NCBI GenBank assembly: GCA_041666745.1
Contig: JBAYGI010000002.1
Coordinates: forward strand, 36,291 to 100,290
DNA: 64,000 nt
Source: Candidatus Magasanikiibacteriota bacterium
GTDB taxonomy: Bacteria > Patescibacteriota > Patescibacteriia > Magasanikbacterales > GWA2-37-8
Reading direction: 5' to 3'
Position numbers and translations under genes: made by a program. This document shows, one piece after another, positions 8,985 to 53,800 of the stretch. The stretch's first letter is position 1, and each line of letters opens with the position of its first letter. A model generated the notes under the pieces. It was given only the letters and a program-made list of their open reading frames with translations, had not been told where the DNA came from and did no database searches.

Positions 8985-8998
8985 GATTTAATTCTTTA

Positions 8999-9108
8999 TC
9001 AAAAAAACACAGGTTACAACCACCTTTTCGCTTTTTTTGCCCGCGAGGGCAAAAGGATGAGCCTCGGCTCATAACCCGCTCAAAGGTAATTGTAACCTGT
9101 GTTTTTTT
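8999..9108 (+). ncRNA. Unclassified structured RNA / terminator-embedded conserved element, copy 1 (A-run, 13-bp outer stem ACACAGGTTACAA/TTGTAACCTGTGT, ~70-nt conserved core with GCGA-tetraloop hairpin and CUCG hairpin, U-run)
   Basis: Near-identical core repeated at 41602-41671 with completely different but perfectly paired outer stem and compensatory changes in inner hairpin (TGCCC-GCGA-GGGCA vs CAGCC-GCGA-GGCTG). Confidence 0.5.
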
Positions 9109-9176
9109 CGTCAGTTTGCAATTTCTGCTGTAAATCGGTATTTTTTTATTCTTTGAAATGGTATATAATTGGTGGT

Positions 9177-11743: not shown

Positions 11744-11771
11744 AGGCCGCGGATCTCTCGATCCGCGGCCT
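11744..11771. terminator. Perfect 12-bp palindrome with 4-nt loop (AGGCCGCGGATC tctc GATCCGCGGCCT), likely bidirectional terminator between convergent transcription units
   Basis: Seen directly; located 10 nt from stop of minus-strand gene 11782..12387. Confidence 0.5.
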
Positions 11772-11781
11772 CAGCATTTAT

Positions 11782-12387
11782 TTAGGCGCTAAAGACGTAA
11801 GTTTTTTTCTCCGGATTTAATTTGTAAACTGTCCACGGTCCACTACCATATATTTTATCCAGTTCTTGTAACAAAGAACTTTTTTCATTACTGTGCACTA
11901 CCAACGTACGAGTGGTTTCATCGGCGTGGGCGACACTGTATGTTAAATCGATGGCTATATAATAACCTTTGTTGTGATTGGCCGGATCGGGTATTTCCAA
12001 CAGTCCAATACTGTGAAATTTAAAATGAGCAAAAGCGCCTTTGGTTGGATTTTCATTTTCCAAATCAGAATATTTGGCTTGAGGGTATCTTTCAAAAAAT
12101 TTTTTATCATCATCGTCGGTTTGGTTGACGAGCATTTTGCCAAAATCTTGGGTAGCACTACGACAATTGGCGGCATATTCTTTTTCGGTACCACGGTCGC
12201 CTCTCAAAGCAGTTCTATTTTTTGAACGATAAAATTGAGTAATTACTTCGTCGATATCAAGCATAATATTTTCTTTTTCCGGTCCTAGATCCAGACGGAC
12301 TTTTCCTTCGCGATCCAGATGTTGGGTAACCACTCGTGGTTTGTCTTTTGCTTCGATAGCTGTTCCATGTCTACGTTCGAAAGGCAT
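11782..12387 (-). CDS. Hypothetical protein (201 aa), last gene of long minus-strand operon
   Basis: Long ORF with host-like composition, 16 nt downstream of radA; no recognised motif. Confidence 0.5.
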   Translation of the reverse strand: MPFERRHGTAIEAKDKPRVVTQHLDREGKVRLDLGPEKENIMLDIDEVITQFYRSKNRTALRGDRGTEKEYAANCRSATQDFGKMLVNQTDDDDKKFFERYPQAKYSDLENENPTKGAFAHFKFHSIGLLEIPDPANHNKGYYIAIDLTYSVAHADETTRTLVVHSNEKSSLLQELDKIYGSGPWTVYKLNPEKKTYVFSA

Positions 12388-16529: not shown

Positions 16530-17768
16530 TTATAATTTAATTTCAAAGACACCATTTTGTAAAGTGTCGGTGAAGAAAACTTTATTTTTTGCTTGATCGT
16601 AATTAATATTTTTTATACTATAATCACCACCCAAAGACACGTTGGTTTTCAAGCCGGTTTTCAAATCAATTTTGTACATGTCATCGTTGTTGTAGGTAGC
16701 CACTTCCGGCATTATACCAGCTCCTTGTGGCAGGTCGCGTGGTACGGCGCAAAATAGGGTACTATCACCGGCAAAAGTACATTTGTCTGCCCAAGTATTT
16801 AGTTTTAACATTTGACGGTTATTACCAATGCTATCACCGTATGAGTCTGTTATCCAAAGCTCCGGTTTGAAATCACTGCGAGTGCTGTACACACTATACA
16901 AAAGTTTTTGACCAGTCGGTGACCATTGTGGTTGGAAACCCAACCCTTCAACAACTGTAGATTTAAAATTTTCTCCGTGTAGTCCAACAAACAATACTTC
17001 ACGTCTTTCGCCACCAAGCGCTTCACCGGTTTGAGAAAAGGCGACAGTCTGTCGGCTAGGCGACCAGTCAATCTGCACTTTGTCCGCGTTATTTCCCATT
17101 GGTTCTACCAGTGTGGTGCCACTACCATCATCGTTGACTGTGACTAACCAACGATTTTCCGGGGATAGGCCGATACTTTTGGCGGCGATTTGAGCGCCGT
17201 CAGGTGAAAAGGAAAATTCTTGCCAATGTTTTGGGAGAGTAGTTTGTTTTTGTTTTTCAAAATCATAAACAATTTTGGAACCATCCGGATATTCCAATAC
17301 TGCTTTGTCGTTTTTGCTTGCCCAAGTAGCGTTGCTGACATTATAAAAAGTCTGATCAGAAAGTGATTTGATTTGTCCATCACTGGTGAGACGATAAAAT
17401 TTGCCATCGGCAGAATTGTAATAGCGCATATTACCAGCTTGACTGAATCCAGGATAGGTCACAAAATCCGAAGTCAATTTGTTTACCGGTGCGGCTTGGA
17501 AGTAACCACCAGGAGTGACTTGAGGAATTGGTAGTGGAGCAGTTTCAACGCCCCGTTCCAGTTGTCCGCCTTCTCTTTTTTCAGCGGTAGTGGTCATGAT
17601 TCTTTCGCCAGCCCCCGGAAGTTGTCCGGCTTGTTCTGGTGTGATTTCAGCCGATGGAACCGTAGGGGTGGTCGCTTTTTTGAATAATGTATATAGACCA
17701 AAACCAATCAAGGCGGCTACGACTAGTAGGGCGATGATTAAAAGAATGCGTTTGAGAACTGGATTCAT
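16530..17768 (-). CDS. Membrane-anchored TolB-like / PD40 beta-propeller repeat protein
   Basis: N-terminal TM; repeated ...SPDG.../...WSP.GQ.. blades (FSFSPDGAQIAAKS, WSPSRQTVAFS, QWSPTGQKLLYS). Confidence 0.6.
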   Translation of the reverse strand: MNPVLKRILLIIALLVVAALIGFGLYTLFKKATTPTVPSAEITPEQAGQLPGAGERIMTTTAEKREGGQLERGVETAPLPIPQVTPGGYFQAAPVNKLTSDFVTYPGFSQAGNMRYYNSADGKFYRLTSDGQIKSLSDQTFYNVSNATWASKNDKAVLEYPDGSKIVYDFEKQKQTTLPKHWQEFSFSPDGAQIAAKSIGLSPENRWLVTVNDDGSGTTLVEPMGNNADKVQIDWSPSRQTVAFSQTGEALGGERREVLFVGLHGENFKSTVVEGLGFQPQWSPTGQKLLYSVYSTRSDFKPELWITDSYGDSIGNNRQMLKLNTWADKCTFAGDSTLFCAVPRDLPQGAGIMPEVATYNNDDMYKIDLKTGLKTNVSLGGDYSIKNINYDQAKNKVFFTDTLQNGVFEIKL

Positions 17769-17782
17769 ATATTTAAATTAAA

Positions 17783-19171
17783 TTAAGTTTTTTGTGGTTG
17801 ATTTTCAGTTTGTTGTTCCTGATTTTGTTGATTTTCTTTGGCTTTTTGTTCATCCAGATATTCTTTTCGAGATCTTCCGGTAGCGGCCATCAGACGGTTT
17901 ATGGTCAATATTTCTTTTCTCTTTTTTAATCGTTCTTTGGTCGGTTTCAACACTTCCTTTAATTGATCTATTATTTCAGTTACTTCTTTTTCTATTTTAT
18001 CTACTGCGGCTGTTAACCTGTCTTTTATTATGGCGAAGTTTTTGATCAATAAAATTAAGACTATAAAAGGTGATACAACAATCAACAAAAGTCCAGGAAT
18101 TACCGCCGCGGCAAAACCGGCCGCTATTATTCTTCCGGTACCGACAAGCGCCATGGATAAAGCAGTGGTAATTTTAGTTGCCTCCAAGGTTACTTTGATA
18201 GTTTGCAAAGTAATTAATTTTGTTTCCAGTATAGTAATTTTGGCTTCATCTTTCGCGTTTGATATACCCATGGTCACGCCCATGATGGCACTATAAATTG
18301 TTGGTAGAAAACGTCTCAACAACCACATTGCGCCACTAGATTTAACTCCATCCATTTTATTTTCCAATTTTCTCAAATCAGATTCTAGGTCTCTTCGTTT
18401 TTTACCAAGTTGTTTCAATCTTGATCGATCACTTTGTAAGCTATTTTTTATATTTTTGCCCAAATTTCCCGGTGCATTTTTAACAGCCTTTACAATATTT
18501 TTTGGCGCATCTTTGATCGCCTGTGCGCCACTTTTTATTTTATTAACTCTATCGGTGATACCACCTTTGACACTATCTTTCATTCTTCCACCCAAACTTT
18601 TTTTCTTTGCTTTGTCGGAAGCCATATTGGAAGCGGCGGATTCCTCACTGCCAGGAGGTACTTTTTCAGGGGCTTTATCGGTAGTTGGGTGTGGGCCGGT
18701 TTCTTCGAGAGCTTTGTCCGGGATAGTTTTTGGGGGAGTGGTGTCACGTTTTGTATCGGTTGGTTCAGGAGGAATTGGTTGCTCGTCCGCGGTATCTTCA
18801 GTAGGAGTGGGTGGGGTTTCTTTTTCGGTACCTGGCGGAGGTGTTTGTGGAGATGGGGTAGGAGGTGGAGGAGGAAGGGGTTGAACGGGTTGTTGTTGTG
18901 GCGGTGTTGCATCAGGCTGTGGTGAAGTTTCTTCTGGAACAGGCGGAATAGTGGGCGGAAATTTTGGAGTCGGCGGAATTTCTTCCGGAGGTGTGATTTC
19001 AGTTTTCGGAGTTTTTATTACCGGGGTTTCTAAACCTAATTGAATTTTTTCATCTTTGATTTTTGCACTGTTAACGCCGGATATACCTGTTATTTCAATA
19101 TTATTATCGGCAACTAGACCATTTCTTTCTAATTCTTGTCTAATAAGTTTTTGTTCGTCTGGCGTAGCCAT
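17783..19171 (-). CDS. Proline-rich low-complexity membrane protein (hypothetical)
   Basis: PT/PP-rich segment aa ~50-180, Lys-rich middle, C-terminal hydrophobic TM cluster; GC-rich antisense ORFs here are by-products of proline codons. Confidence 0.5.
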   Translation of the reverse strand: MATPDEQKLIRQELERNGLVADNNIEITGISGVNSAKIKDEKIQLGLETPVIKTPKTEITPPEEIPPTPKFPPTIPPVPEETSPQPDATPPQQQPVQPLPPPPPTPSPQTPPPGTEKETPPTPTEDTADEQPIPPEPTDTKRDTTPPKTIPDKALEETGPHPTTDKAPEKVPPGSEESAASNMASDKAKKKSLGGRMKDSVKGGITDRVNKIKSGAQAIKDAPKNIVKAVKNAPGNLGKNIKNSLQSDRSRLKQLGKKRRDLESDLRKLENKMDGVKSSGAMWLLRRFLPTIYSAIMGVTMGISNAKDEAKITILETKLITLQTIKVTLEATKITTALSMALVGTGRIIAAGFAAAVIPGLLLIVVSPFIVLILLIKNFAIIKDRLTAAVDKIEKEVTEIIDQLKEVLKPTKERLKKRKEILTINRLMAATGRSRKEYLDEQKAKENQQNQEQQTENQPQKT

Positions 19172-21769: not shown

Positions 21770-23185
21770 ATGTTTCCAAAACAGGTATTTAAAGTCTATG
21801 ATATCCGCGGTCTAACAGAGGGTGAGTTGAGCGAAGATTTGGCCTATCGGATTGGCAGAGCGTATGGAGTGTTTTTGCGAGAAAGTAGCACTGTCATTCC
21901 GATCCGCCAGTCGGCGGGCGAGGAATCCCTCAAAGTGGTGGTCGGGCAAGACATGCGCGCCACCAGTCCGAAATATGCAAAAGAAGTAATTCGCGGGCTA
22001 AATGATGAAGGTCTAAATGTGGTAGATATCGGTTTGGCCAGCACGCCACTGTTTAATTTTGCTTGTACTTTTTATCCTGAACATTTGGCTGGTATCATGG
22101 TGACTGCCAGCCACAACCCGGCGCAATACAATGGTTTCAAAATGACCCTGCACGATGGTACGCCAGTCGGAGGAAAAACCGGTATGGATACGATTCGCGA
22201 TTTAGCAGAAAAAAATGAGTGGACATCGGCGAACGCAGAAAATGTCATTCCCGCGAAAGCGGGAATCCAGGCATCAATCACCCAAAAAGATGTCTTCCCA
22301 GATTACCTAAACAAAATTTTATCCATTGTAAAACCGGAAGAAATAAAACCATTAAAAATAGTAATTGACGCCGGCAACGGTATGGCCGCCGTCACATTCG
22401 TGGAATTATTAAAAAAGTTACCGGTGCAGGTTGAATATTTGTTTTTAAAACCGGATGGAAATTTTCCGAATCACGAGGCCAATCCGTTGAAAACTGAAAC
22501 ATTAAAAACATTGCAGGAAAAAGTAAAAGCCACCGGCGCGGATTTTGGTTTTGCCTTGGATGGAGACGCGGATCGTATGGGTTTAGTAGATGAAAATGGG
22601 GAAGTGGTGGAAGCGTCTTTTGTTGGGGCTTTGGCTGGTTTAGAAATTTTACGAGAACACCCTGGTGTACACATGCTTTATGATTTGCGCTCCAGTAAAA
22701 TTCAGAAAGAAGTTTGGGAAGCCAATGGCGCTACGACCGGTATGTGTCCGGTGGGGCATGCGAATATAAAAAAGATGATGAAAGATCAAAAGGCAGAGTT
22801 CGCCAGCGAGCTGTCTTTGCATCTGTATTTTCACTCCATGTGTGATGTGGAATCCACCGATTTGGCCCTGTTATATTTCTTGCGATTGTTATCTCGTAGT
22901 GGCAAAAAATTGAGCGAGCTGATCGCGCCGTTGAAAAAATATTTTCATTCCGGTGAGATAAATTTCAAAGTGGCCGACAAAGAAAAAGTGTTGAACAATT
23001 TACGTGTTCAATATGGCGATGCAAAAATAACCGAGTTGGATGGATTATCTTTTGAATATCCGACTTGGTGGTTTAATGTACGCGCGAGTAATACTGAGCC
23101 GGTTTTGCGGCTGAATTTGGAGGCGGATACCAAGGGTGAAATGGAAGAAAAATTGGTGAATGTGAAAAATATAATCAATGGATAG
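21770..23185 (+). CDS. Phosphoglucomutase/phosphomannomutase family (alpha-D-phosphohexomutase)
   Basis: Active-site TASHNPAQYNGFK, Mg-binding DGDADR, 471 aa; carries two in-frame GC-rich palindromic insertions. Confidence 0.85.
   Translation: MFPKQVFKVYDIRGLTEGELSEDLAYRIGRAYGVFLRESSTVIPIRQSAGEESLKVVVGQDMRATSPKYAKEVIRGLNDEGLNVVDIGLASTPLFNFACTFYPEHLAGIMVTASHNPAQYNGFKMTLHDGTPVGGKTGMDTIRDLAEKNEWTSANAENVIPAKAGIQASITQKDVFPDYLNKILSIVKPEEIKPLKIVIDAGNGMAAVTFVELLKKLPVQVEYLFLKPDGNFPNHEANPLKTETLKTLQEKVKATGADFGFALDGDADRMGLVDENGEVVEASFVGALAGLEILREHPGVHMLYDLRSSKIQKEVWEANGATTGMCPVGHANIKKMMKDQKAEFASELSLHLYFHSMCDVESTDLALLYFLRLLSRSGKKLSELIAPLKKYFHSGEINFKVADKEKVLNNLRVQYGDAKITELDGLSFEYPTWWFNVRASNTEPVLRLNLEADTKGEMEEKLVNVKNIING
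21893..21930. repeat. GC-rich palindromic element inserted in-frame in pgm (GTCATTCCGATCCGCCAGTCGGCGGGCGAGGAATCCC)
   Basis: Nested inverted repeats ATTCC...GGAAT and CCGCC-AGTC-GGCGG; encodes extra peptide SSTVIPIRQSAGEESLK just before conserved VVVGQDMR. Confidence 0.5.
22244..22270. repeat. GC-rich palindromic element GTCATTCCCGCGAAAGCGGGAATCCAG inserted in-frame in pgm (encodes VIPAKAGIQ; antisense WIPAFAGMT)
   Basis: Perfect 8-bp stem ATTCCCGC/GCGGGAAT with GAAA loop; reverse complement almost identical (27/28) to intergenic copy at 30481-30509. Confidence 0.6.
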
Positions 23186-26768: not shown

Positions 26769-26869
26769 AGTAATATTAATTTAACCATAAAAAAAGGGGG
26801 TTGTAAAGGTGTCGGGTTGACAAAATCAATTTTTTATCATAAAATAACATCACAAATAAATTACCAATT

Positions 26870-27106
26870 ATGTATAAAAACAATTTACAATTTTCCGTTG
26901 TTTATCAACAAGATGAAGATGGTGGGTTTATCGCCACTGTTCCGGCATTGCCGGGTTGCCATACTCAAGGTAAGGATTTACCACAAACAATATTGCGTAT
27001 AAAAGAGGCGGTAGATTTGTATATAGAAAGTTTGAAATCAGACAAATATATCCGTCAGGCAGCGCAAAGACAGGTATTAGTCGGCACTGTAATGGCAAAC
27101 GGTTAA
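26870..27106 (+). CDS. hicB: HicB-family antitoxin (UPF0150)
   Basis: ...FSVVYQQDEDGGFIATVPALPGCHTQGKDLPQTILRIKEAVDLYIES... classic HicB N-domain. Confidence 0.8.
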   Translation: MYKNNLQFSVVYQQDEDGGFIATVPALPGCHTQGKDLPQTILRIKEAVDLYIESLKSDKYIRQAAQRQVLVGTVMANG

Positions 27107-27107
27107 T

Positions 27108-27344
27108 ATGGTAAGTTTCAGTCAACTTCCAAATTTAAAAGCCAAGCAACTAATACATATTTTGGAAAAGATAGGTTTTGAAGTCGCAAGGCAAAAAGGC
27201 AGTCATGTAATTTTAATACACGAAAAAAGTAAATTACGCACGGTGGTGCCAATTCATTCAGGTGAAACAATCAAAAAATCTCTTTTGATGGAGATTGTAA
27301 AACAGGTAGGTTTATCAGTGGAAGATTTTTTGGAGTTGTTATAA
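27108..27344 (+). CDS. hicA: HicA-family toxin
   Basis: ...IGFEVARQKGSHVILIHEK...; 1-nt gap after hicB. Confidence 0.8.
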   Translation: MVSFSQLPNLKAKQLIHILEKIGFEVARQKGSHVILIHEKSKLRTVVPIHSGETIKKSLLMEIVKQVGLSVEDFLELL

Positions 27345-27387
27345 AAATTGTTAAAATCTATAAAATAAATTTGCGGACAAAGTTTAA

Positions 27388-27416
27388 AAAACACCGACTG
27401 CCAAGCCGGTGTTTTA
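27388..27416 (+). terminator. Putative terminator after hicA (AACACCG-loop-CGGTGTT + TTTT)
   Basis: 7-bp stem, 10-nt loop, T-run. Confidence 0.4.
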
Positions 27417-27433
27417 AATATGTGGACAAAAAT

Positions 27434-27463
27434 TTGACCAAATGCTTCGGGGGGGGGTAGAAT
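27434..27463 (+). promoter_or_regulatory. Sigma70-like promoter TTGACC-N18-TAGAAT whose spacer contains a G9 homopolymer tract (27449-27457)
   Basis: Hexamers read directly; ~40 nt upstream of ATG 27503; poly-G is exceptional in this AT-rich genome. Confidence 0.5.
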
Positions 27464-27502
27464 AGATGTGTTAAATATTTTTTTATTTTTTAATTAAATT
27501 AT

Positions 27503-28483
27503 ATGGTAGAAGGGTACAAACACAAACCATCATCAGTAGGAGATAAATTAAGAGGAGTTGCTGGTAGAATAGCGATGTTAGGAGGCGCGGCAGGTTTGCT
27601 TGGTGGCGTTGAACAGGTTGGTGAACACAGAGGAAAAGAGACTGCTCAAGAAAAAATTATGACAGGAAAAAATAAAAAAGAGGATAATACAAAAAATTTG
27701 GAGCAAGAAGTGGAAAATCGTCAGATGCATGTGATCAAAGAGATAGATCAATGTATACATGAATTAGAAAAAATCCCAAAAAATTTAAGTGTATCAGAAT
27801 TGTCTGATGTGACATTAAAAATGGAAAACATTCTTGATAATTATATTCAGTGGGCTTTTGATGATACTGGAGAACAAACAGATAATACAATTTTGATTTT
27901 AGGGAAAATACGCGAATTTGCTACAAAAATTGCCGAAGGACATGTTGATGAAGAAGATGAAAAAAACCAATTTAGAGCATTTATCACAGGAGATGGTGTG
28001 CTGGCCTACGAGGCAAAAAAAAGTCCGGATTTTAACATAATGGTTAATGAAGTAATAGCCAAAAAACGACTTGAGTTGATGGAATTTAAAAGATTATTTC
28101 TTACAGCTTTTAATAATAGGGATTTTCAAAGAGCAACAATTTACAGTCGTGATATTATATTCCTTGCGGAACAAATTTCGGGTTTGACTGCTAGTATGTA
28201 CTATGAAAAAGCAGACAGAGCAAAGTTTGGTAGTTATTATAGAAAAAGTGGAGAATTAGGTTTGGGAAGGGGTTTGGATTTGCATAGAGTCAGAGAACAT
28301 GTTAGTGAAATATCACAAGGTTCTCCAGAAGATTTTACTCGACCAGAATTTCTTACACCCCATGAAATAGATACTTTTATTGATATGCCAAAGTCAGGTT
28401 CGTCAAGAAAAACAGAAGAAGAAATCAGAATGCAAAAACAAGCCGATGAAAATAGTCGTGGCACGAGTCCGGCATTTGATTAA
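27503..28483 (+). CDS. Hypothetical protein (326 aa, no recognised domain), downstream of G9-tract promoter
   Basis: ATG ORF with host-like codon usage; acidic/Lys-rich; bracketed by promoter and strong terminator. Confidence 0.5.
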   Translation: MVEGYKHKPSSVGDKLRGVAGRIAMLGGAAGLLGGVEQVGEHRGKETAQEKIMTGKNKKEDNTKNLEQEVENRQMHVIKEIDQCIHELEKIPKNLSVSELSDVTLKMENILDNYIQWAFDDTGEQTDNTILILGKIREFATKIAEGHVDEEDEKNQFRAFITGDGVLAYEAKKSPDFNIMVNEVIAKKRLELMEFKRLFLTAFNNRDFQRATIYSRDIIFLAEQISGLTASMYYEKADRAKFGSYYRKSGELGLGRGLDLHRVREHVSEISQGSPEDFTRPEFLTPHEIDTFIDMPKSGSSRKTEEEIRMQKQADENSRGTSPAFD

Positions 28484-28488
28484 AAAAT

Positions 28489-28521
28489 AAAGCCGGCTTA
28501 CAAATAGCCGGCTTTATTTTT
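28489..28521. terminator. Bidirectional Rho-independent terminator (AAAGCCGGCT-tacaaat-AGCCGGCTTT flanked by A-run and T-run)
   Basis: Perfect 10-bp stem between convergent genes. Confidence 0.65.
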
Positions 28522-28538
28522 CATATTTTATAGAGGTT

Positions 28539-29891
28539 TTAAAGTACTAAATCTACACCTGCACTCCCGTCATAATTTTCAGGGTGAAATCGTTTATCAT
28601 TTTCTAAAACTAATTCTGTATCTTCCTCATTCCACAACCATCCAGTCGCGGTTAAAATCCAGTCTGGTTGAGCTGTATCTTCCATTAGTAGACTGGCATA
28701 TTCTCCGCGTTGTAAAACGGTATGCTTATCAAATGTTATTCCATACTGATCAATGATCGTCTGTAATTCTTCAAGTATTTTTTTATCGTCCCCATCCAAA
28801 TTAGTAGTATTGGTTTGAAATTTTATTTTTTGTTCAATGTATCGTTTTAATAAAAAATCGGCAACAGTCAAACTTCCTGTCTTGATCTCCTGCAAAAAGT
28901 CAAAAAAAAATTTCTTAGTTAACAAAAAGCTTTTTAATAGCTCTAATTTTTGTGTATCGTTTGCTGTCGTTTTTAGAAGATTAACAATTTTTTGACGGCC
29001 ATCAAATTTACTGTTTTCAGTTTCTGTTTCCGTTTCAGATTGTTGACCAATCATGTAATTTTTTGCTATCCTGATTTCATCTGCATCCAAATCATTCTTT
29101 GAAAGGATTTGATTTAGAAAATGTTCTCTTTTTTTATTAATAATTTCTCCTATAACCCCTGCCCTTTTAAGACGCATCGCCGGCTGATTATGTGAAGGAT
29201 CGGTTTTTTTGATAACATCTTTCACTAATTGGTAATCAGCTGGGGCCAATTCTTTTTTTGGGTCTTCGCTGGATAAATAAACGCGAGCGATTTCTGCCCA
29301 GTATTCAGTGGCTCTTCTAAGTTTCACATTCACATGGGAGTAAGATTCTTTAAAAATTTTATCCCAATCCACGTGTTCAACACGCTCAACATCATTGGAT
29401 ATATATCTATCTGGTGCTTGGCTACGCTCTATTACAGTTTTTTTAAAATTTTCTTTTTCTTCTGTGGTCATGCCGTTATTTGCTTCCCAATCATTGGCAT
29501 GTGCAATTTCATGTAAGAGAATGTTATCCCACAAATCATAATCGTTGTGATAGTGTGAATTTGATAAAATATAAATTTTACGTATATCTGGTGTGCTTAA
29601 ATTCGTTATATCGCGTATATGGATAGCTCTGGCACCTTGAGTAGATTGAGATAATGTTCCATAAGAACCTTCAAATCGTAATACAAAAATTTCTCCCAAC
29701 CAACCTTTTGGCACAGTACTTAAAATAGATGTTACCTGATCCTCTGTGACAGCAGCGTCAAATTTTTTTAAACCTCTCAAACAAATTTCTGGTCCTTCAA
29801 TTTCTGGTTTTACAATGTCAGGGGTTTCTAAAGGTTGTGTTGGTTTAGAAATGTGACTGTCAATATTTTGTGGTCTGCTTGTCTCGGGCAT
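28539..29891 (-). CDS. Hypothetical zincin-like protein with HExxH motif (NILLHEIAHANDWE), co-transcribed with lemA
   Basis: 450 aa, no signal peptide; HEIAH motif; start 4 nt after lemA stop. Confidence 0.5.
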   Translation of the reverse strand: MPETSRPQNIDSHISKPTQPLETPDIVKPEIEGPEICLRGLKKFDAAVTEDQVTSILSTVPKGWLGEIFVLRFEGSYGTLSQSTQGARAIHIRDITNLSTPDIRKIYILSNSHYHNDYDLWDNILLHEIAHANDWEANNGMTTEEKENFKKTVIERSQAPDRYISNDVERVEHVDWDKIFKESYSHVNVKLRRATEYWAEIARVYLSSEDPKKELAPADYQLVKDVIKKTDPSHNQPAMRLKRAGVIGEIINKKREHFLNQILSKNDLDADEIRIAKNYMIGQQSETETETENSKFDGRQKIVNLLKTTANDTQKLELLKSFLLTKKFFFDFLQEIKTGSLTVADFLLKRYIEQKIKFQTNTTNLDGDDKKILEELQTIIDQYGITFDKHTVLQRGEYASLLMEDTAQPDWILTATGWLWNEEDTELVLENDKRFHPENYDGSAGVDLVL

Positions 29892-29895
29892 ATTG

Positions 29896-30462
29896 TTAAA
29901 ACTTCACCTGCACGTTCTGTCTCTCACCCTCGGCTGCTTGGAAAAATTCGTATTTAGCAAATTTCAAAAAGCCGGCAAACATATTGGTCGGGAATGTCTG
30001 AATACTGGTATTGAAGTCGCGCACATTGCCATTGTAAAATCTGCGACTGGCTTGTATTTTATTTTCCGTATCCGAAATTTCATCTTGCAATTGCAAAAAG
30101 TTTTGGCTGGCTTTTAATTCCGGATAATTTTCTGTAACCGCAAACAAACTTTTTAAAGTAGAGGACAGAGCGTTTTCCGCTTGTTCGCGTTGTGCCAATG
30201 TCGCGCCGGAATTGTCGTGTACCGCCATCGCCGAGGTGCGTGCTTCGGTCAATTTTACCAATGTCTCGCGTTCGTGGGTCATATATCCCTTCACGGTTTC
30301 CACCAAGTTTGGGATAAGGTCGTATCGGCGTTTGAGCTGGACATCAATATCAGAAAAGGCCTCGTCCACGCGGTTTTTCCCGCGCACCAGACCATTAAAA
30401 ACGGCAATTATCCAGATTAGCACTATTGCCAGAACCGCTAAAATAATATAAAGTATAGGCAT
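29896..30462 (-). CDS. lemA: LemA family membrane protein
   Basis: N-terminal TM then ...FNGLVRGKNRVDEAFSDIDVQLKRRYDLIPNLVETVKGY... LemA signature. Confidence 0.8.
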   Translation of the reverse strand: MPILYIILAVLAIVLIWIIAVFNGLVRGKNRVDEAFSDIDVQLKRRYDLIPNLVETVKGYMTHERETLVKLTEARTSAMAVHDNSGATLAQREQAENALSSTLKSLFAVTENYPELKASQNFLQLQDEISDTENKIQASRRFYNGNVRDFNTSIQTFPTNMFAGFLKFAKYEFFQAAEGERQNVQVKF

Positions 30463-30480: not shown

Positions 30481-30509
30481 CTGGATTCCCGCGTTCGCGG
30501 GAATGACAG
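30481..30509. repeat. Intergenic copy (reverse orientation) of palindromic element CTGGATTCCCGCGTTCGCGGGAATGACAG in divergent lemA/rseP promoter region
   Basis: Reverse complement matches 22244-22270 at 27/28 positions; GC-rich tail continues to ~30540. Confidence 0.55.
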
Positions 30510-41194: not shown

Positions 41195-41581
41195 ATGTTT
41201 ACAAACTCAAAAGATATTTTATATTTAGTTATTTCGTTTTGCGTGCTGTGGGTGACTTTTTTCTTGTGTTGGATGTTTTATTATTTGATGCGTTTGTTGC
41301 GCAATGCCAATGAGATCGTCGAGGAATTTCGGGTGCGACTGCAGACTTTGACCGAGGCTATAAATTATATTCGCGGAAAAGTGGAACACATGTCCGGTTT
41401 GATGACTTTGATTACTGACGGCGCTTCCGGTTTGATTCAAAAAGTAATCGCCAAAAAAACCCACGAATGGGTAGAGGATGGATCCGAAAAGATAAATAAA
41501 AGCGCCAAAGAGGCGGTGGCTAGGGCAGTGGCTGTGACTGCTAAAAAAATGAAGAAAGCTACTAAGGCGATCAAAAAATAA
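41195..41581 (+). CDS. Hypothetical small membrane protein (1 TM + helical Lys-rich tail)
   Basis: ATG at 41195 preceded by AGAGGGG RBS; TM LYLVISFCVLWVTFFLCWMFYYL. Confidence 0.5.
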   Translation: MFTNSKDILYLVISFCVLWVTFFLCWMFYYLMRLLRNANEIVEEFRVRLQTLTEAINYIRGKVEHMSGLMTLITDGASGLIQKVIAKKTHEWVEDGSEKINKSAKEAVARAVAVTAKKMKKATKAIKK

Positions 41582-41690
41582 TAAAAAATACGCACATATA
41601 ACCACCTTTTCGCTTTTTTCAGCCGCGAGGCTGAAAGGATGAGCCTCGGCTCATAACCCGCTCAAAGGTAATTATATGTGCGTATTTTTT
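41582..41690 (+). ncRNA. Unclassified structured RNA / terminator-embedded conserved element, copy 2 (outer stem ATACGCACATATAA/TTATATGTGCGTAT)
   Basis: Core 41602-41671 matches 9020-9089 except compensatory changes in GCGA hairpin; flanked by A-run and U-run. Confidence 0.5.
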
Positions 41691-41699
41691 ATTATTTTT

Positions 41700-41728
41700 T
41701 TGACTGTGGATAAGGTTTGGAGTATGAT
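41700..41728 (+). promoter_or_regulatory. Sigma70-like promoter TTGACT-N17-TATGAT for gdh
   Basis: Consensus-like hexamers ~30 nt upstream of start. Confidence 0.45.
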
Positions 41729-46618: not shown

Positions 46619-49111
46619 ATGAAAAAGTATAACCATCAGGAAGTTGAAAAAAAATGGAAGAAAAAGTGGGAGGATAGTGAAATTTACAAAACAGCGGATA
46701 CTTCGGATAAACCAAAATATTATGTTTTGGATATGTTTCCGTATCCGTCTGGCGCCGGTTTGCATGTTGGTCATCCCAAAGGATATATTGCTACAGATAT
46801 TATTGCGCGTCAAAAAATGATGCAAGGTTACAATGTACTTCACCCGATGGGTTGGGACGCGTTTGGTTTGCCGGCAGAAAATTATGCCATCGCGAACAAA
46901 GTGCATCCGAGTGTGGCCACGGCCAAAAACATCAAAACTTTCAAAAAGCAATTGGGTTTGCTTGGTTTTACCTATGATTGGAATCGCGAAGTGAATACTA
47001 CCGACCCGGCATATTACAAATGGACACAATGGGCATTTGTTCAAATGTTTAAAAAAGGTTTGGCTTATGAATCTTTTGAGCCGATCAACTGGTGTCCGAG
47101 TTGTCAGACCGGTTTGGCCAACGAAGATTTGAACGATGGAAAATGTGAGCGCTGTGGTAGTGAGATTGAACACAAGCCGATGCGCCAATGGGTTTTGAAA
47201 ATTACTGATTATGCGGAGAGGTTATTGAAAGATTTAGAAAAATTACCACAATGGCCGGAACATATTAAAAAAATGCAGAGTGATTGGATTGGAAAGAGTG
47301 AAGGGGCGGAAGTGGATTTTACGATTGTCATCCCGAGCGAAGCCGAGGGATCCCTCCACTCGTTGCGACACTCAGTCGGGATGACAACTCTCAAAGTATT
47401 CACCACTCGTCCGGATACTTTGTTTGGTGCGACCTATATGGTAATAGCGCCGGAACATAAAATTTTAGAACAATTAAAAGAAAAAATTTCCAATTGGACA
47501 GAAGTGCAAAAATATATTACCGATGCGAATAAAAAATCCGATTTGGAACGCACGGATTTGGCCAAAGAAAAAACCGGCGTGCGAATCAAAGGTGTGGAAG
47601 CGATAAATCCAGTCACGGAAGAATCGTTACCAATTTTTGTAGCTGATTATGTTTTGGCCGGTTATGGTACCGGAGCGATCATGTCTGTACCAGCGCACGA
47701 TGAACGAGATTGGGAATTTGCTAAAAAATATAAACTACCGATAGTAGATGTAGTATTGCCAATGGATAAAAACGGCGCTGTTCTTTTTGATGCCAACAAT
47801 TTAAGTGAAAGTGCTTTTTGTGAAAATGGTGTGGCGGTGAATTCGGACTTTTTAAATAATTTACCTACCGAAGAAGCCAAAGAAAAAATGATTGGATGGT
47901 TGGAAGAAAAAGGAATAGGCAAAAGGAAAGTACAATACAAATTACGCGATTGGGTTTTTTCTCGTCAGCGTTATTGGGGTGAGCCGATTCCTTTGGTAAA
48001 ATGTGAAAAATGTGGTTGGATCCCAGTTCCGGAAAATGAATTACCGCTTGAACTTCCAAAAGTAAAAAATTACGCACCTAGTGGTACCGGGGAATCACCG
48101 CTCGCCACTATCGACAAATGGGTAAATACCAAATGTCCGCAGTGTGGTGGCAAAGCCCAACATGAAACCAACACCATGCCACAGTGGGCGGGGAGTTGTT
48201 GGTATTATTTACGCTATGAAGATCCACACAATGAAAAAGAATTGGTAAACAAAAACAAAGAAAAATATTGGAGTCCGGTAGATTTGTATGTTGGTGGAGC
48301 CGAGCATGCCACGCGTCATTTGATCTACGCGCGTTTTTGGCATAAATTTTTATTTGATATCGGTGTGGTGCAAAACGACGAACCGTTTACTCGTTTGCAA
48401 AATGTCGGTTTAATTTTGGCCGAAGATGGACGCAAAATGAGTAAGCGCTGGAACAATGTGATCAACCCCGACGATGTGGTAAAAGAATACGGTGCCGACG
48501 CCATGCGTTTGTATGAAATGTTTATGGGACCATTTGATCAGCCATGTGCTTGGAATACTCAAGGGTTGGTAGGTATGAAAAGATTTTTGGAAAGAGTTTG
48601 GGGGTTGTTGGGGAAAAATACCGGATCCCCGATCGGGTCGGGGATGACAAGTGGTGCTATAACTCTATTACATCAGACAATAGAAAAAGTTTCAAAAGAT
48701 ATTGAAACACTTTCTTTCAACACCGCCATCGCCAAGATGATGGAGTTGGTGAATGAGTTTAATAAACATGAGCAAATCACCACAAAAGATTTGAAAACTT
48801 TTTTACAATTACTCGCTCCCTTTGCCCCTCATATTAGTGAAGAATTATGGGGCGTGTTGGGAGAAAAAGAAAGCATATTCAAGTCAGTTTGGCCAAAACA
48901 TGATCCGGAACTGGCAAAAGATGTTGAAATTACTCTGGCTGTGCAGATAAATGGTAAATTACGCGACACCATCACCGTGTCTGCTGATATTTCCGAAGAA
49001 CAAGCCAAACAAACTGCTTTATCTAGTGAAAAAGTAAAAAAATGGCTGGAAAACAAACCCCCTCAAAAGGTGATTTATGTTAAAGGGAAACTGATCAGTA
49101 TAGTAGTGTAA
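46619..49111 (+). CDS. leuS: Leucine--tRNA ligase
   Basis: HVGHPKGY (HIGH), KMSKS, CP1 editing domain; 830 aa; carries two in-frame GC-rich palindromic insertions. Confidence 0.95.
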   Translation: MKKYNHQEVEKKWKKKWEDSEIYKTADTSDKPKYYVLDMFPYPSGAGLHVGHPKGYIATDIIARQKMMQGYNVLHPMGWDAFGLPAENYAIANKVHPSVATAKNIKTFKKQLGLLGFTYDWNREVNTTDPAYYKWTQWAFVQMFKKGLAYESFEPINWCPSCQTGLANEDLNDGKCERCGSEIEHKPMRQWVLKITDYAERLLKDLEKLPQWPEHIKKMQSDWIGKSEGAEVDFTIVIPSEAEGSLHSLRHSVGMTTLKVFTTRPDTLFGATYMVIAPEHKILEQLKEKISNWTEVQKYITDANKKSDLERTDLAKEKTGVRIKGVEAINPVTEESLPIFVADYVLAGYGTGAIMSVPAHDERDWEFAKKYKLPIVDVVLPMDKNGAVLFDANNLSESAFCENGVAVNSDFLNNLPTEEAKEKMIGWLEEKGIGKRKVQYKLRDWVFSRQRYWGEPIPLVKCEKCGWIPVPENELPLELPKVKNYAPSGTGESPLATIDKWVNTKCPQCGGKAQHETNTMPQWAGSCWYYLRYEDPHNEKELVNKNKEKYWSPVDLYVGGAEHATRHLIYARFWHKFLFDIGVVQNDEPFTRLQNVGLILAEDGRKMSKRWNNVINPDDVVKEYGADAMRLYEMFMGPFDQPCAWNTQGLVGMKRFLERVWGLLGKNTGSPIGSGMTSGAITLLHQTIEKVSKDIETLSFNTAIAKMMELVNEFNKHEQITTKDLKTFLQLLAPFAPHISEELWGVLGEKESIFKSVWPKHDPELAKDVEITLAVQINGKLRDTITVSADISEEQAKQTALSSEKVKKWLENKPPQKVIYVKGKLISIVV
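47326..47386. repeat. GC-rich palindromic element inserted in-frame in leuS (TGTCATCCCGAGCGAAGCCGAGGGATCCCTCCACTCGTTGCGACACTCAGTCGGGATGACA)
   Basis: 10-bp terminal inverted repeat GTCATCCCGA/TCGGGATGAC plus inner palindrome GAGGGATCCCTC; encodes extra ~14-20 aa (IVIPSEAEGSLHSLRHSVGMTT) in a loop that is 8 aa in E. coli LeuS. Confidence 0.55.
48623..48649. repeat. Second GC-rich palindromic element in leuS (GGATCCCCGATCGGGTCGGGGATGACA; encodes PIGSGMTSG)
   Basis: 8-bp stem ATCCCCGA/TCGGGGAT; shares GGGATGACA terminus and GGATCC with the other family members. Confidence 0.45.
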
Positions 49112-50018: not shown

Positions 50019-50840
50019 ATGAAAAATAGATGGTTAAACTTAGTGTTGCTTTTAACCAATCGGATTTACACCAAGAAACAGCTGATAATAGAACAAAGCG
50101 GGTTGGGGGCAGTTTATAATATTTTTCTTTTGATCGTCCTAGAAATAGTGCTGGCGGTTATTTCTTTACCTCTTTATATCAGTCTTCGCTCCGCTTCGGT
50201 CACGGCATTTTTATCTGAAAAGGGGAGTTATGCCAAAGTAGATTTCGATTACAATATTCGACGTATTCTCACTTTGACCGGTGTTGGTATCGTGGCGTTG
50301 ATTTGGGTGATTAAATTATCGCTCATTATTTTGTTACCAAAAATTTATGGCCCATTACCGCTTTATGTGGTGACTGATTTTCGACCGGCGGATATTTTGT
50401 CCAAAGAATTGGTGATGGCTGAGACGGGCATCCAGACAGCGCGTATTATGAAAACAATGCCCAAACCGGAAGTGACCGGAGTAACCAAATTAAAAGGCGG
50501 TGATTATACTTTTTTGGGTACCGGCCAACCAAATTCCACAGTGATTTTGTTATTGACTGACAAACAAACGGCCATTTATTCAGGTTTGACTGATAAGAGC
50601 GGTAAGTGGGAAATAGACTATTCTCAGAGTAAATTCAAACTCGGTCCGGGCAATCATTCGGTGATCGTTTTTGGTTATGATCAAAAGCTCGGAGTACGCA
50701 GTGAAACCGGTTTGGAGCAATTTTTTAAGGTGCAGACTTCTTTGATGGACAGTTTGGTTGCTAATGTAGATGTGCTGGCCAATTGGTCCGTGGTAATTAT
50801 TATTTTACTGGGAGTATTTTTGACTTTTTTAACTTTATAA
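50019..50840 (+). CDS. Membrane protein with N-terminal 2-TM anchor module (shared with giant protein), one Ig-like domain and C-terminal TM
   Basis: N-terminus MKNRWLNLVLL...IVLAVISLPLYISL...RRILTLTGVGIVALIWVIKL parallels giant-protein N-terminus. Confidence 0.5.
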   Translation: MKNRWLNLVLLLTNRIYTKKQLIIEQSGLGAVYNIFLLIVLEIVLAVISLPLYISLRSASVTAFLSEKGSYAKVDFDYNIRRILTLTGVGIVALIWVIKLSLIILLPKIYGPLPLYVVTDFRPADILSKELVMAETGIQTARIMKTMPKPEVTGVTKLKGGDYTFLGTGQPNSTVILLLTDKQTAIYSGLTDKSGKWEIDYSQSKFKLGPGNHSVIVFGYDQKLGVRSETGLEQFFKVQTSLMDSLVANVDVLANWSVVIIILLGVFLTFLTL

Positions 50841-50841
50841 T

Positions 50842-53800
50842 ATGGCCACTCGTTGGCTCAATTTTTTCTTTCGTTTTTCCGGATATGTTTTTGGTTTAAA
50901 ACAAAAGATTGTTAAATCAGATAGTTTGTGGAAAGTTATTCCCGAAGCCATTTTTTTGCTTTTGTTAGAATTTAGTTTTGCGATAGTTTCTTTGCCGATG
51001 TATTTACTGGTGCCACCGGAAAAAGTACAAGAGACCGGCGCTATTTTTCCTAGCGCAAATAAAGAAAAACCTCAAATTAGCACCTATGTTGTCAGACGAA
51101 AAATCAGTTTGGTCACTACTTTGAGCGCGGCTATAATATTTTTTTCTAAATTAATTTTTGTTGGGATTGTTTCTTTTTATTTGTTGGGCGCGCAACAACT
51201 TTTGGCGTCTACCCAAGATTGGGATTTTACCACTTCTTCTCAATATATTACCAGCAGTTCATCGATTGAATTTGTTGGCGGAACTGCGCAATTAAAAGAT
51301 TTAGGGGCTACTGTTACCGGTTCTACTATCAACGCCGGCGTTACTACCACTGGTAATAACTGGGCATATAATGATTGGACAGACCCATCAAATGTGGTCG
51401 TGGGTGGAACTAGGCAGACATCCAATGGAAATCCGGGACCATACTTAAATGTGAATATTGCGATCACCGGTTCGGCAACCCAAAATAGAACAGGCGCCGG
51501 CTATTGGACGCAATCATTTGTTACTACGGTCGCCTCGCCAGACACAGCCACTTTGAATTTGGATTGGAAGTCCATTACCTATACATCACCAACTGCTCCA
51601 GCCACTTATCGGCTATATGCTTTTATTGATACATCTCCCACTACGACTCCACCCTCGTCCACCAGCACCGCGGTTTGGAATAGTGGGGAAATCACCGGTA
51701 CTACCAATTGGGCAAGTATTTCAGCAGTGAATATCGCCAGTAAAGTTCCAACAGCCGGTACCTATTATTTAAAAATTGCCGCCTATGCCACTAGTCCAAA
51801 AGTGGCTACAAGTTTTTCCTATATTTCCGGTTTTGACAATATTATTGTAAATTGGTCAAAGGTTACCCATGTTTATGATTCTACAAAACCAACTGTTACC
51901 CCGAGTAGTTCGTTGACCATGGCCAAGACGGTGAGTTGGAATTCTTTTGCTGAAACAGCGACAAAAAATGGTGGTGAAATTTATTATCAATTAACCGGAG
52001 ATGATGGCAGTACTTGGAAATATTGGAATGGTTCGGCTTGGGCTACGGCCAGTGCGTCAAATTATAATATTGCCACCGATGTAAATACTTATATTGGTAG
52101 TTTTGCGACCAGTAGTAACCAAATTAAATTTAAAGCATTTTTATCCAGTAGTGGCAGTCAGCAGGTGATTTTGGACAATGTGGCGATTGGTTACACGGAA
52201 AATTTACCACCGACAGTGGCAAATTTAGCGCCGGCGCAAAACATACAAAATGGGTATGTATTTGTAAATTATAATTTACAAGATACCGAAAGCGATCCGT
52301 CCAGTTTAGTCAATTATGAATATTCATTAACCGGTGCGTTTGCCGGTGAACAGGTGGCGATGACCGCCTCGACGACTGACCCGGCACATAGTGGTATTTC
52401 AAATTTGACCACATCACCGGCAGGGGTGGCGCATACTTTTGTTTGGGATGCCAAATCACAGTTGGGGGCAGTATACAACACCAGTGTATATGTAAGAATG
52501 CGCGGTAACGACAGTATCCAAAGTGGCGCCTATACGACTTCGACGGTATTCACGGTAGATTATGTAAATCCAGTAGTAACAAATGTTTCGGCGACTCAAC
52601 CTTTGAATACTACAACCGTGCAAATCAGCTATGATCTTTCTGACAATACAACAGATAATTTATTTACAGATTTTCAAGTGTCTGGTGATGGTGGATCTAC
52701 TTGGGCGGTCGCGACTTCATCCGCCAGCGGAGCGGTTGGTAGCGGAGTAACCGCTGGAGCAGGCAAAATAATCTATTGGAATGCCGGTACAAATTATGGT
52801 GGTCATCAGCAAAGTAATATGCAGGTGCGTGTGCGAGCCAAAGATAAATGGCAAAATATTGATGGGTTTGTTACTTCGACCAATTTTTCATTGGATACTT
52901 TGGCGCCAGCGACTTTGGTAACTGCGGATTTAAAAGCTCAACCAAATGCGGGCGATACGACGGTTTTAATTGGTGGCAGTTTCACTGAAGTAAATCCAAG
53001 TACCAATACTTTTTATGCGGCAGTGACCGGTGGCGCTTATGATGGCGCTACTATCGGCACTCTCAATTCCGCCAGTCCTTCGAATCAAGCGACAACGGTA
53101 ACGACATCTCTCAAAGGCAATGATTATATTTCCAAAGTAAAAATCACCCATACGGATAAATATGGACAATCTTTTGATAATGAAAATACATCACCAAGCA
53201 CCACTTTTAAATTTGTAAAACCATACACACCGGCCGCACCAACTTTATCTAACCCGATAACTACTCATTTGGATTTGGTGGTGAATTCAAATGTAAACGA
53301 AGCTAGTGGTTTGGAATATGCTATTTATGAAACCACGACGGCGAAATATGTCCAAAGTAATGGGACACTCGGTGTGTCGGCCGTTTGGCAAACTTCCGTG
53401 GCTTGGGGCACCAAAACCGTAACTGGTCTATCTTCACCGGTTTCACAATATATTTTTCAAGTAAAATCTCGCAATACTTCAGATGGCGCGCATGCTGTTT
53501 CGTCTGAATCGGCATTTTCGGCGACCGCTCAAATTCCGAACACAGCTCCGTCAATCGCTTTAAATACTTACGCTCAAACTACAGATGGCACTGATTATGT
53601 GACGATTGCCTACACCGGTACCGATGGTCAAGGTGATATTAGTGGTGTACCGACCTACCAATATTCTACCGATAATGCAACGTGGCATACTATGACACAA
53701 AAATCCGGTGTGGGAAGTAGTGGAACTTCCAGTTTGGTATTTTTACCAACCGGTAGCGCTTATAATTTTGCTTGGGATTCAAATGCTGATTTACCGACTG

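Follow-up and report, generated by a model that had tools for sequence, protein, structure and literature searches.

NTS/SRM-like hairpin repeats inserted in frame in housekeeping genes of a Magasanikbacteria genome

Results and Discussion

We analyzed a window of 64,000 nucleotides from a Candidatus Magasanikiibacteriota genome (contig JBAYGI010000002.1, positions 36,291 to 100,290), a bacterium of the Candidate Phyla Radiation (CPR, or Patescibacteria), and find that it carries six short palindromic elements, which we call A to F: two in the phosphohexomutase gene pgm, three in the leucyl-tRNA synthetase gene leuS and one between genes. All five genic copies are in frame, free of stop codons and placed in loops or inter-domain linkers. 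The elements are insertions that are present or absent relative to syntenic relatives, and they are polymorphic between close relatives. Judged by sequence, B, C and F appear to be members of a repeat family known from Neisseria, the Neisseria Transformation Sequence (NTS) and the wider group of Ssn-related motifs (SRM), and A, D and E appear to be variants of it. What is new here is the host and the in-frame insertion behavior of a known repeat family; our searches of the literature turned up no earlier account of NTS/SRM copies inserted in frame into genes of CPR bacteria. It is likely, in our judgment, that the observations are best explained as a whole by NTS/SRM repeats that were inserted into this genome, are recognized by Ssn nucleases and persist as passengers filtered by selection.

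Six palindromic elements in one window

The canonical NTS/SRM copy is element B (TGTCATTCCCGCGAAAGCGGGAATCCAG; 22243..22270, + strand), which lies in the gene for a phosphomannomutase/phosphoglucomutase (Pgm, 471 aa; 21770..23185, + strand). Its 27-nt unit GTCATTCCCGCGAAAGCGGGAATCCAG (22244-22270, + strand) forms an 8-bp stem (ATTCCCGC/GCGGGAAT) around a GAAA loop and contributes the in-frame peptide VIPAKAGIQ (aa 159-167) to the linker joining Pgm domains I and II. A previous sequence-only reading of this gene had described exactly this unit and peptide, and its claim that the antisense open reading frame (ORF) 22072..22281 contains WIPAFAGMT is likewise confirmed by the translation of that ORF. 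Element A (21893..21928, + strand) is a variant hairpin repeat, GTCATTCC-GATCCGCCAGTCGGCGGGCGA-GGAATCC, located upstream in the same gene. It is read in frame as residues V42-S53 (VIPIRQSAGEES), which sit within SSTVIPIRQSAGEESLK directly N-terminal of VVVGQDMR. This position is a loop of domain I between helix 22-38 and strand 55-60, and the net gain is 8 aa.

The sequence-only reading was confined to these two pgm segments, and the finding is larger than that: the window holds four more elements of the same kind. Element C (TGTCATTCCCGCGAACGCGGGAATCCAG; 30481..30508, - strand) is an intergenic NTS/SRM copy that lies in the spacer between the divergently oriented genes lemA and rseP, 19 nt upstream of where lemA starts. 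The other three are in the gene for leucyl-tRNA synthetase (LeuRS, 830 aa; 46619..49111, + strand). Elements D (GTCATCCCGAGCGAAGCCGAGGGATCC; 47327..47353, + strand; read as VIPSEAEGS) and E (GTCATCCCGACTGAGTGTCGCAACGAGTGGAGGGATCC; 47348..47385, - strand; read as GSLHSLRHSVGMT) form the left and right halves of a convergent pair located where the LeuRS catalytic and editing domains meet; they overlap in a common GGATCC, and the pair has an outer 12-bp palindrome (GTCATCCCGA.../...TCGGGATGAC). Element F (TGTCATCCCCGACCCGATCGGGGATCCGG; 48621..48649, - strand) is an SRM copy that supplies GSPIGSGMT in frame at about aa 668-677 and directly precedes the anticodon-binding domain, which starts at aa 682. 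The elements are 27-38 nt long, and the D/E pair spans 59 nt. An nhmmer search of the window with a profile of 15 copies returned no further decayed copies.

Relationship to the Neisseria Transformation Sequence

NTS is a 28-nt sequence, CGTCATTCCCGCGMAVGCGGGAATCYRG, that contains the dRS3 repeat ATTCCC-N8-GGGAAT (Chenal et al., Nat Commun 2025, PMC11893778). It is a member of the SRM, the targets of the Ssn family of GIY-YIG single-strand DNA nucleases. SsnA, a small GIY-YIG nuclease, binds NTS as a single-stranded DNA (ssDNA) hairpin and cuts a few nucleotides upstream, and the features critical for Ssn are the C that directly follows the palindrome and the three bases preceding it on the upstream side (PMC11893778). 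We searched the window for NTS as the authors of that study did, that is for CGTCATTCCCGCGMAVGCGGGAATCYRG with at most one mismatch, and for SRM with the pattern HGTCWYN(0-2)YYVSBRHN(0-5)WNVSBRGN(0-2)RNCYNB. Elements B and C (minus strand) agree with the NTS consensus, with a T for C at position 1 as the sole mismatch, and A, D, E and F do not. The SRM pattern is matched by B, C and F and missed by A, D and E. The dRS3 core is perfect in both B, which reads ATTCCCGCGAAAGCGGGAAT, and C, which reads ATTCCCGCGAACGCGGGAAT. The three SRM matches compare with 0.11 expected from Markov-simulated sequences, and the 27-mer with at most 3 mismatches occurs twice in the window versus 0.00 expected. Scans of the window against Rfam (gathering threshold) and for tRNAs returned nothing, which rules out a known RNA family or a tRNA fragment as the origin of the elements.

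When folded as ssDNA and compared to shuffled sequences, B (z = -4.3), C (z = -5.3) and F (z = -2.1) form clean 8-bp hairpins, and the D/E composite forms a compound palindrome (-16.6 kcal/mol, z = -3.5). For element A (z = -1.7), the minimum-energy fold has the inner CCGCC/GGCGG stem only. The sequence-only reading had taken A for a nested palindrome inserted before the VVVGxDxR block; the sequence and its position are as described, but the insertion is not a clean one. We next aligned 15 distinct copies from Patescibacteria loci and find that 96.7% of the stem cells are paired. Three stem positions have changes on both sides, one of which splits T:A versus C:G 8 to 7, and the observed covariation score was reached by none of 500 shuffles. 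These compensatory changes indicate that the hairpin itself is maintained, beyond its sequence. The ssDNA folds of B, C and F and the stem covariation together show the conserved ssDNA hairpin expected of an SRM.

Distribution of the repeat

A scan of one-genome-per-species contigs for the exact 28-mer found at least 120 stretches, with more than 20 phyla among the matches listed, so that the earlier suggestion that the 27-mer and its peptides are widely dispersed holds. The CPR groups among the matches listed are Magasanikbacteria, Falkowbacteria, Jacksonbacteria, Sungiibacteriota, Parcubacteria and Saccharibacteria; the non-CPR matches listed include Rickettsia, Sphingomonas, Planctomycetota, Bacteroidetes, Chloroflexi, Nitrospirota, Omnitrophota and many more. 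Local GC content among the stretches listed spans 32% to 70%. At least 120 contigs of a viral collection match a looser pattern for the NTS core. Among the matches listed, copies of the 28-mer are mostly in short spurious ORFs, which implies that most are intergenic, and a minority are deep within long ORFs. The translations VIPAKAGIQ, SFPRKRES, HSRESGNP, WIPAFAGMT and LDSRFRGND recur in the short spurious ORFs.

We analyzed the flanks of 134 exact copies from 120 loci (L124-L243). A convergent partner lies within 200 nt downstream in 45% of these copies and a divergent upstream partner in 7%. The flanks show no conservation save for a pyrimidine-rich tract at -8 to -1 (about 60-70% pyrimidine), which is the region of reported Ssn cutting.

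Variants resembling element A (GTCAT-YCYGA-YCCGCC-loop-GGCGG...) occur in L154, which is another Magasanikbacteria metagenome-assembled genome (MAG), in the Sungiibacteriota MAG L141 and in L049, a contig of a viral collection. Element A belongs to a variant subfamily that is also present in other Patescibacteria.

Insertion relative to orthologs and syntenic relatives

Comparison with orthologs shows that the element-bearing segments are longer in the window proteins. The Pgm segment around element A is 17 aa long in 115 of 120 orthologs and 25 aa in the window protein alone, and the segment around element B has a mode of 22 aa (90 of the 120) versus 32 in the window. In the 121 LeuRS sequences, the most common length of the D/E segment is 17 aa, compared with 32 in the window, and that of the F segment is 36, compared with 39. 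In structure alignments, Xanthomonas PGM has a 15-residue gap where element A lies, and the D/E pair corresponds to about 15 extra residues relative to Thermus LeuRS.

The same sites can be examined at the DNA level in syntenic contigs of the close relatives L001/L244, L002 and L245. Element A is absent in L001 and L002. Element B is absent in L002 and is found at the same codon position in L001. Element C is absent in the orthologous lemA-rseP spacer of L001. The D/E pair is absent from L244 and L245, relative to which the window has exactly 45 additional nucleotides, and element F is absent in L245, while L244 has a diverged orthologous copy and an added (+) partner. In one relative, there are zero elements in 22 kb. 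Ortholog loop lengths and the absence of A and B from relatives therefore support the earlier proposal that both Pgm segments are insertions. The extra residues could also be a native, fast-evolving loop, or an assembly artefact, that resembles a repeat by chance, and it is true that both Pgm loops and both LeuRS sites are length-variable among orthologs. We consider this account refuted: an identical 28-mer across the phyla listed above makes chance impossible, an independent assembly, made from a different sample, has element B at this same site, and the segments are GC-rich palindromes within a 39% GC genome.

Between the window and L001, element B agrees at 26 of 27 nt, whereas identity over the whole of pgm is 76.9% and, at third codon positions, 54.7%. 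Near-identity of the element in such a diverged gene points to either constraint at the DNA level or recent or repeated insertion. The first possibility raises the idea that the element is a domesticated DNA signal, whose hairpin is useful at the DNA level and whose peptide is a cost. For instance, the element could mark genes so that their transformation or recombination comes under the control of Ssn, as with the NTS-gene-NTS arrangement of Neisseria. In addition to the near-identity of B despite a 45% difference at third codon positions, the retention of the stem by compensatory changes and the conservation of the exact 28-mer across phyla fit such a role, as does the presence of the competence gene comEC near leuS in relatives, given that NTS/Ssn modulates transformation in N. 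meningitidis (PMC11893778). However, copies decay in other orthologs (VIPVQTGIQ, VISVKTGIQ) and G:T wobbles are found in the L244 and L001 copies. Furthermore, close relatives fare well in the absence of A, C and D/E, one relative has none in 22 kb, and near-identity is also possible from a recent insertion or from repeated insertion at a hot spot. We regard a domesticated signal as an unlikely explanation.

Host proteins and their counterparts in other Patescibacteria

Both host genes are intact. Pgm can be aligned from end to end with solved PGM/PMM structures (E = 1e-77), Pfam domains I-IV are all found (domain I at 5-151, domain II at 178-277), and the catalytic blocks TASHNP, DGDADR and RxSNTEP are invariant in the ortholog alignment. 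The protein is 100% identical to one from a Candidatus Magasanikbacteria MAG. By these measures pgm is not a pseudogene, and an essential-looking enzyme is indeed interrupted with its frame unbroken, as the sequence-only reading had it. In an AlphaFold (AF2) model of Pgm with the ortholog alignment as input, the mean predicted local distance difference test score (pLDDT) is 86.8. The block at 41-50 that holds insert A (pLDDT 57) and the blocks at 151-170 that hold insert B (pLDDT 54-64) are among the lowest 10-residue blocks, and both inserts lie between predicted secondary-structure elements; modelling thus places both in low-confidence loop or linker stretches. LeuRS aligns to PDB 1h3n (E = 1e-225) with its HIGH-type (HVGH) and KMSKS-type (KMSKR) motifs aligned; its Pfam domains are recovered and its catalytic motifs are intact.

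The same loops carry related peptides in many other Patescibacteria. In Pgm, these are SFPRKRES..GFPIKSGMT and the decaying forms VIPVQTGIQ and VISVKTGIQ; in LeuRS, they are VIPAKARIQ..GSPIKSGMT, VIPVKTGI..GSPIESGMT, VIPSEAEGSL and MDSRFRGNDK. The versions at these shared loops use several reading frames. SecA from a Sungiibacteriota MAG and Tgt from a Parcubacteria MAG also contain in-frame copies. As its letters show directly, the 28-mer has no stop codon in five of its six reading frames, so the repeat can easily survive inside genes.

The LeuRS proteins of many Magasanikbacteria and other Patescibacteria (within orthologs P0122-P0230) bear whole inserted domains, giving proteins of 950-1320 aa. 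The insert sites follow window aa 239-257, 383-398 and 465. An alpha/beta-hydrolase domain (PF00561/PF06821) is found at aa 239-257 or 465, and a NUDIX domain (PF00293) is found within the editing domain. The hydrolase site at aa 239-257 is also the site of the D/E pair; we found no evidence of elements flanking the domain insertions in the LeuRS of relatives. A further observation concerns the gene downstream of leuS. In relatives this is comEC (PF03772), immediately adjacent in L244 (13083-14582) and separated by one polysaccharide-deacetylase gene in L245 (13365-14873). In the window, the next sizeable ORF past leuS (50019..50840) has no Pfam match, and the remainder of that stretch was left unscanned. 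The location of comEC beside leuS may matter given that NTS/Ssn acts on transforming ssDNA in Neisseria.

Link to Ssn nucleases and proposed origin

In the genomes where they were described, ssn genes, which encode GIY-YIG proteins of the cd10448 type, are typically flanked by SRM, in the arrangement NTS-ssnA-NTS (PMC11893778). Among the loci we fetched, small GIY-YIG (PF01541) ORFs directly adjoin NTS copies in nine, with NTS-gene-NTS arrangements in L082 and in Sphingomonas cavernae (L173), and the Ssn-like gene in L246-L248 adjoins a D-type element. Seen against these NTS-GIY-YIG-NTS loci, convergent pairs such as D/E look like empty ssn cassettes. A protein search returned 361 Ssn-like homologs; for the one that was looked up, there was no evidence of a CPR origin. 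Most of the Ssn-like proteins P0241-P0360 are on very short contigs (0.5-2 kb). This fits with assembly breaks at flanking repeats, in which case ssn would easily be missed in MAGs. Stand-alone GIY-YIG genes are reported to be exchanged by Patescibacteria (PMC12455944).

We propose that NTS/SRM, a family of short GC-rich oriented hairpins with a 5' TGTCAT, an 8-bp stem with the dRS3 core ATTCCC-N8-GGGAAT and a post-stem C, would have spread into this AT-rich Magasanikbacteria genome. The elements would be miniature, non-autonomous derivatives of an NTS-ssn-NTS cassette, and the protein recognizing them, as ssDNA hairpins, would be a GIY-YIG nuclease of the Ssn family whose gene lies elsewhere in the genome or in the community. 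We infer that the mobilizing enzyme would be of the Ssn type. As a gene-dense CPR genome has hardly any intergenic space, selection would retain only those insertions that leave the frame unbroken, use one of the five frames without stops and hit permissive surface loops. Some insertions were apparently made in-frame by the deletion of native loop codons. Peptides such as VIPAKAGIQ and GSPIGSGMT would then be tolerated passengers and not functional modules.

Several observations weigh against this proposal. Elements A, D and E fall outside the published SRM pattern, although they too start with TGTCAT, contain a GC-rich hairpin and end in ATCC. In N. meningitidis, 2% of NTS copies are genic, a rarity that the original report stresses (PMC11893778), whereas five of the six copies in the window are genic and in frame. 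Binding and cutting of ssDNA have been demonstrated for Ssn, and transposition activity has not (PMC11893778). The genic insertions are also not clean: none of the net gains (24, 30 and 45 nt) equals the length of the inserted element, neighboring native loop codons are replaced, and the loop with element A is unlike that of relatives over about 54 nt, of which 24 nt are net gain. Frame-restoring deletions may accompany those insertions that survive, or insertion may replace target DNA. Across the 134 exact copies, there is no target-site duplication beyond chance. Lastly, we found no GIY-YIG or Ssn gene in the 64-kb window by six-frame motif regex, tblastn or hmmsearch --max (the best match in these searches was the NTS translation itself), no ssn gene in about 65 kb of syntenic DNA from relatives, and none near about 14 Patescibacteria loci that bear the element.

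An alternative is another mover, such as a REP/RAYT-type system (repetitive extragenic palindromes and their associated tyrosine transposases), an IS200/IS605-type HUH transposase, or recombination with imported DNA that bears the element, with Ssn unrelated to the spread in Patescibacteria. The insertions resemble replacement of loop DNA more than clean integration, no ssn gene lies near any Patescibacteria copy examined, and a transposase activity of Ssn is yet to be demonstrated. On the other hand, there is no transposase among the annotated genes of the window. The elements have the GTCAT flank and the post-stem C needed for Ssn cleavage and binding and not the GTAG of REPs, and GIY-YIG genes are the sole recurrent neighbors of the repeats in the fetched loci. 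We judge a mover other than Ssn to be quite improbable, and continue to favor NTS/SRM repeats with an Ssn-type enzyme.

Other features of the window

The window is AT-rich (about 39% GC) and encodes a core CPR gene set that comprises a ribosomal protein operon, secY, recG, radA, clpC, pgm, an ADP-forming acyl-CoA synthetase, lemA, rseP, pheST, histidine kinases, gdh, fpg and leuS. A second, two-copy repeat is found at 8997-9112 (between secY and recG) and 41570-41703 (between a histidine kinase gene and gdh), both intergenic. Its core of about 75 nt is nearly identical between the copies (..AACCACCTTTTCGCTTTTTT..GCCGCGAGG..AAAGGATGAGCCTCGGCTCATAACCCGCTCAAAGGTAATT..). A long outer stem differs in sequence between the copies yet remains complementary, and an inner hairpin also has compensatory changes. 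The RNA fold has an energy of -54.4 kcal/mol (z = -9.6), and no Rfam family matches at threshold. This repeat may represent either a structured RNA or a further palindromic mobile element. A perfect 11-bp GC-rich palindrome (GGCCGCGGATC-TCTC-GATCCGCGGCC; 11745-11770) lies between the convergent recG (end 11294) and ORF 11782..12387 (- strand), and probably acts as a terminator in both directions.

The end of the window, from about 52600 to 64000, is occupied by a tandem array of diverged repeats of about 330-336 nt (about 110 aa) with the motifs SxDGGxTW and TWNAG. The array is at least 11 kb long, continues past the window end and presumably encodes a giant repetitive surface protein. In the relative L001, a diversity-generating retroelement module (bAvd and reverse transcriptase; 16575-17958) is located between an M48 peptidase gene and lemA. 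The equivalent region of the window (26800-29900) has ORFs 27503..28483 and 28539..29891, both without a Pfam match. We looked for such a retroelement here and rejected it, as ORF 27503..28483 has no reverse-transcriptase domain.

Implications for CPR proteins

The finding joins three topics: dRS3/NTS and Ssn of Neisseria, the in-frame palindromic insertions of Rickettsia, and the odd insertions of CPR proteins. If it is true genome-wide, many unexplained short inserts in CPR housekeeping proteins would be derived from repeats, as would many "hypothetical proteins" that contain VIPAKAGIQ, SFPRKRES, RGND or AGMT. This is relevant to annotation, to alignment-based phylogeny of CPR, and to the question of how a 28-nt element can be the same in more than 20 phyla. 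Additionally, orthologous alleles with and without inserts provide a natural test of the tolerance of essential enzymes to loop insertions. A much broader claim would be that SRM/NTS hairpins are an active, general force that remodels housekeeping proteins of CPR/Patescibacteria through repeated hits on ssDNA-exposed or permissive loops (Pgm, LeuRS, SecA, Tgt), with a dual DNA/protein code under selection and with breaks or recombination possibly seeding larger accretions such as the hydrolase and NUDIX domains that LeuRS of relatives carries at the same junction. We hold this claim to be doubtful and offer it as speculation.

Comparison with known systems

The closest known system is NTS/SRM with Ssn. 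The likeness lies in the oriented GTCAT flank, the 8-bp hairpin and the post-stem C, and in dispersed copies that elsewhere bracket small GIY-YIG genes. In addition to the high genic fraction described above, the host differs: here it is a CPR bacterium, and the main text of the Neisseria study mentions neither Patescibacteria nor Candidate Phyla (PMC11893778). The dRS3 repeats of pathogenic Neisseria share the perfect core with B and C. However, dRS3 is described as an intergenic repeat of Neisseria and a phage integration target, whereas the core occurs here in coding DNA and in an unrelated phylum.

REPs are extragenic by definition and have a GTAG motif 5' of the hairpin; their RAYT enzymes are IS200/IS605-like and of the Y1 HUH type. 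REPs and the bacterial interspersed mosaic elements (BIMEs) that they form resemble our elements in being short hairpins with an oriented 5' motif, in their frequent inverted pairs and in the flanking of a small single-domain nuclease gene. They differ in the motif, GTAG there and GTCAT here, and in the enzyme, HUH there and GIY-YIG for NTS. The 5' motif of the window elements is TGTCAT, and no scanned window ORF matches a Pfam transposase family. [quoted passage not shown] Convergent pairs are common (the 45% given above), but target-site duplications are not above chance in the 134 copies, and the solo 28-nt hairpins are far shorter than MITEs usually are.

Finally, the sequence-only reading had drawn an analogy to the Rickettsia palindromic elements (RPE), of which ten families of about 150 bp insert in frame into housekeeping genes (PMC10969869). 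The analogy stands as far as behavior is concerned: RPE are palindromic and lie in frame in unrelated housekeeping genes with their peptide at sites compatible with the fold (PMC10969869), and all five genic copies of the window are likewise in loops or linkers, as are the copies in SecA and Tgt of other Patescibacteria. It does not extend to family membership. The window elements are of the NTS/SRM family and, at 27-59 nt versus about 100-150 bp, are too short to be RPE families. The two groups may nevertheless meet in Rickettsia itself. In the Rickettsia endosymbiont of Polydrusus tereticollis (L133, 5735-5853), two exact 28-mers form the 28-bp inverted ends of an AT-rich unit of 119 bp, which is in the size range of RPE, and some RPE-like units may be NTS pairs.

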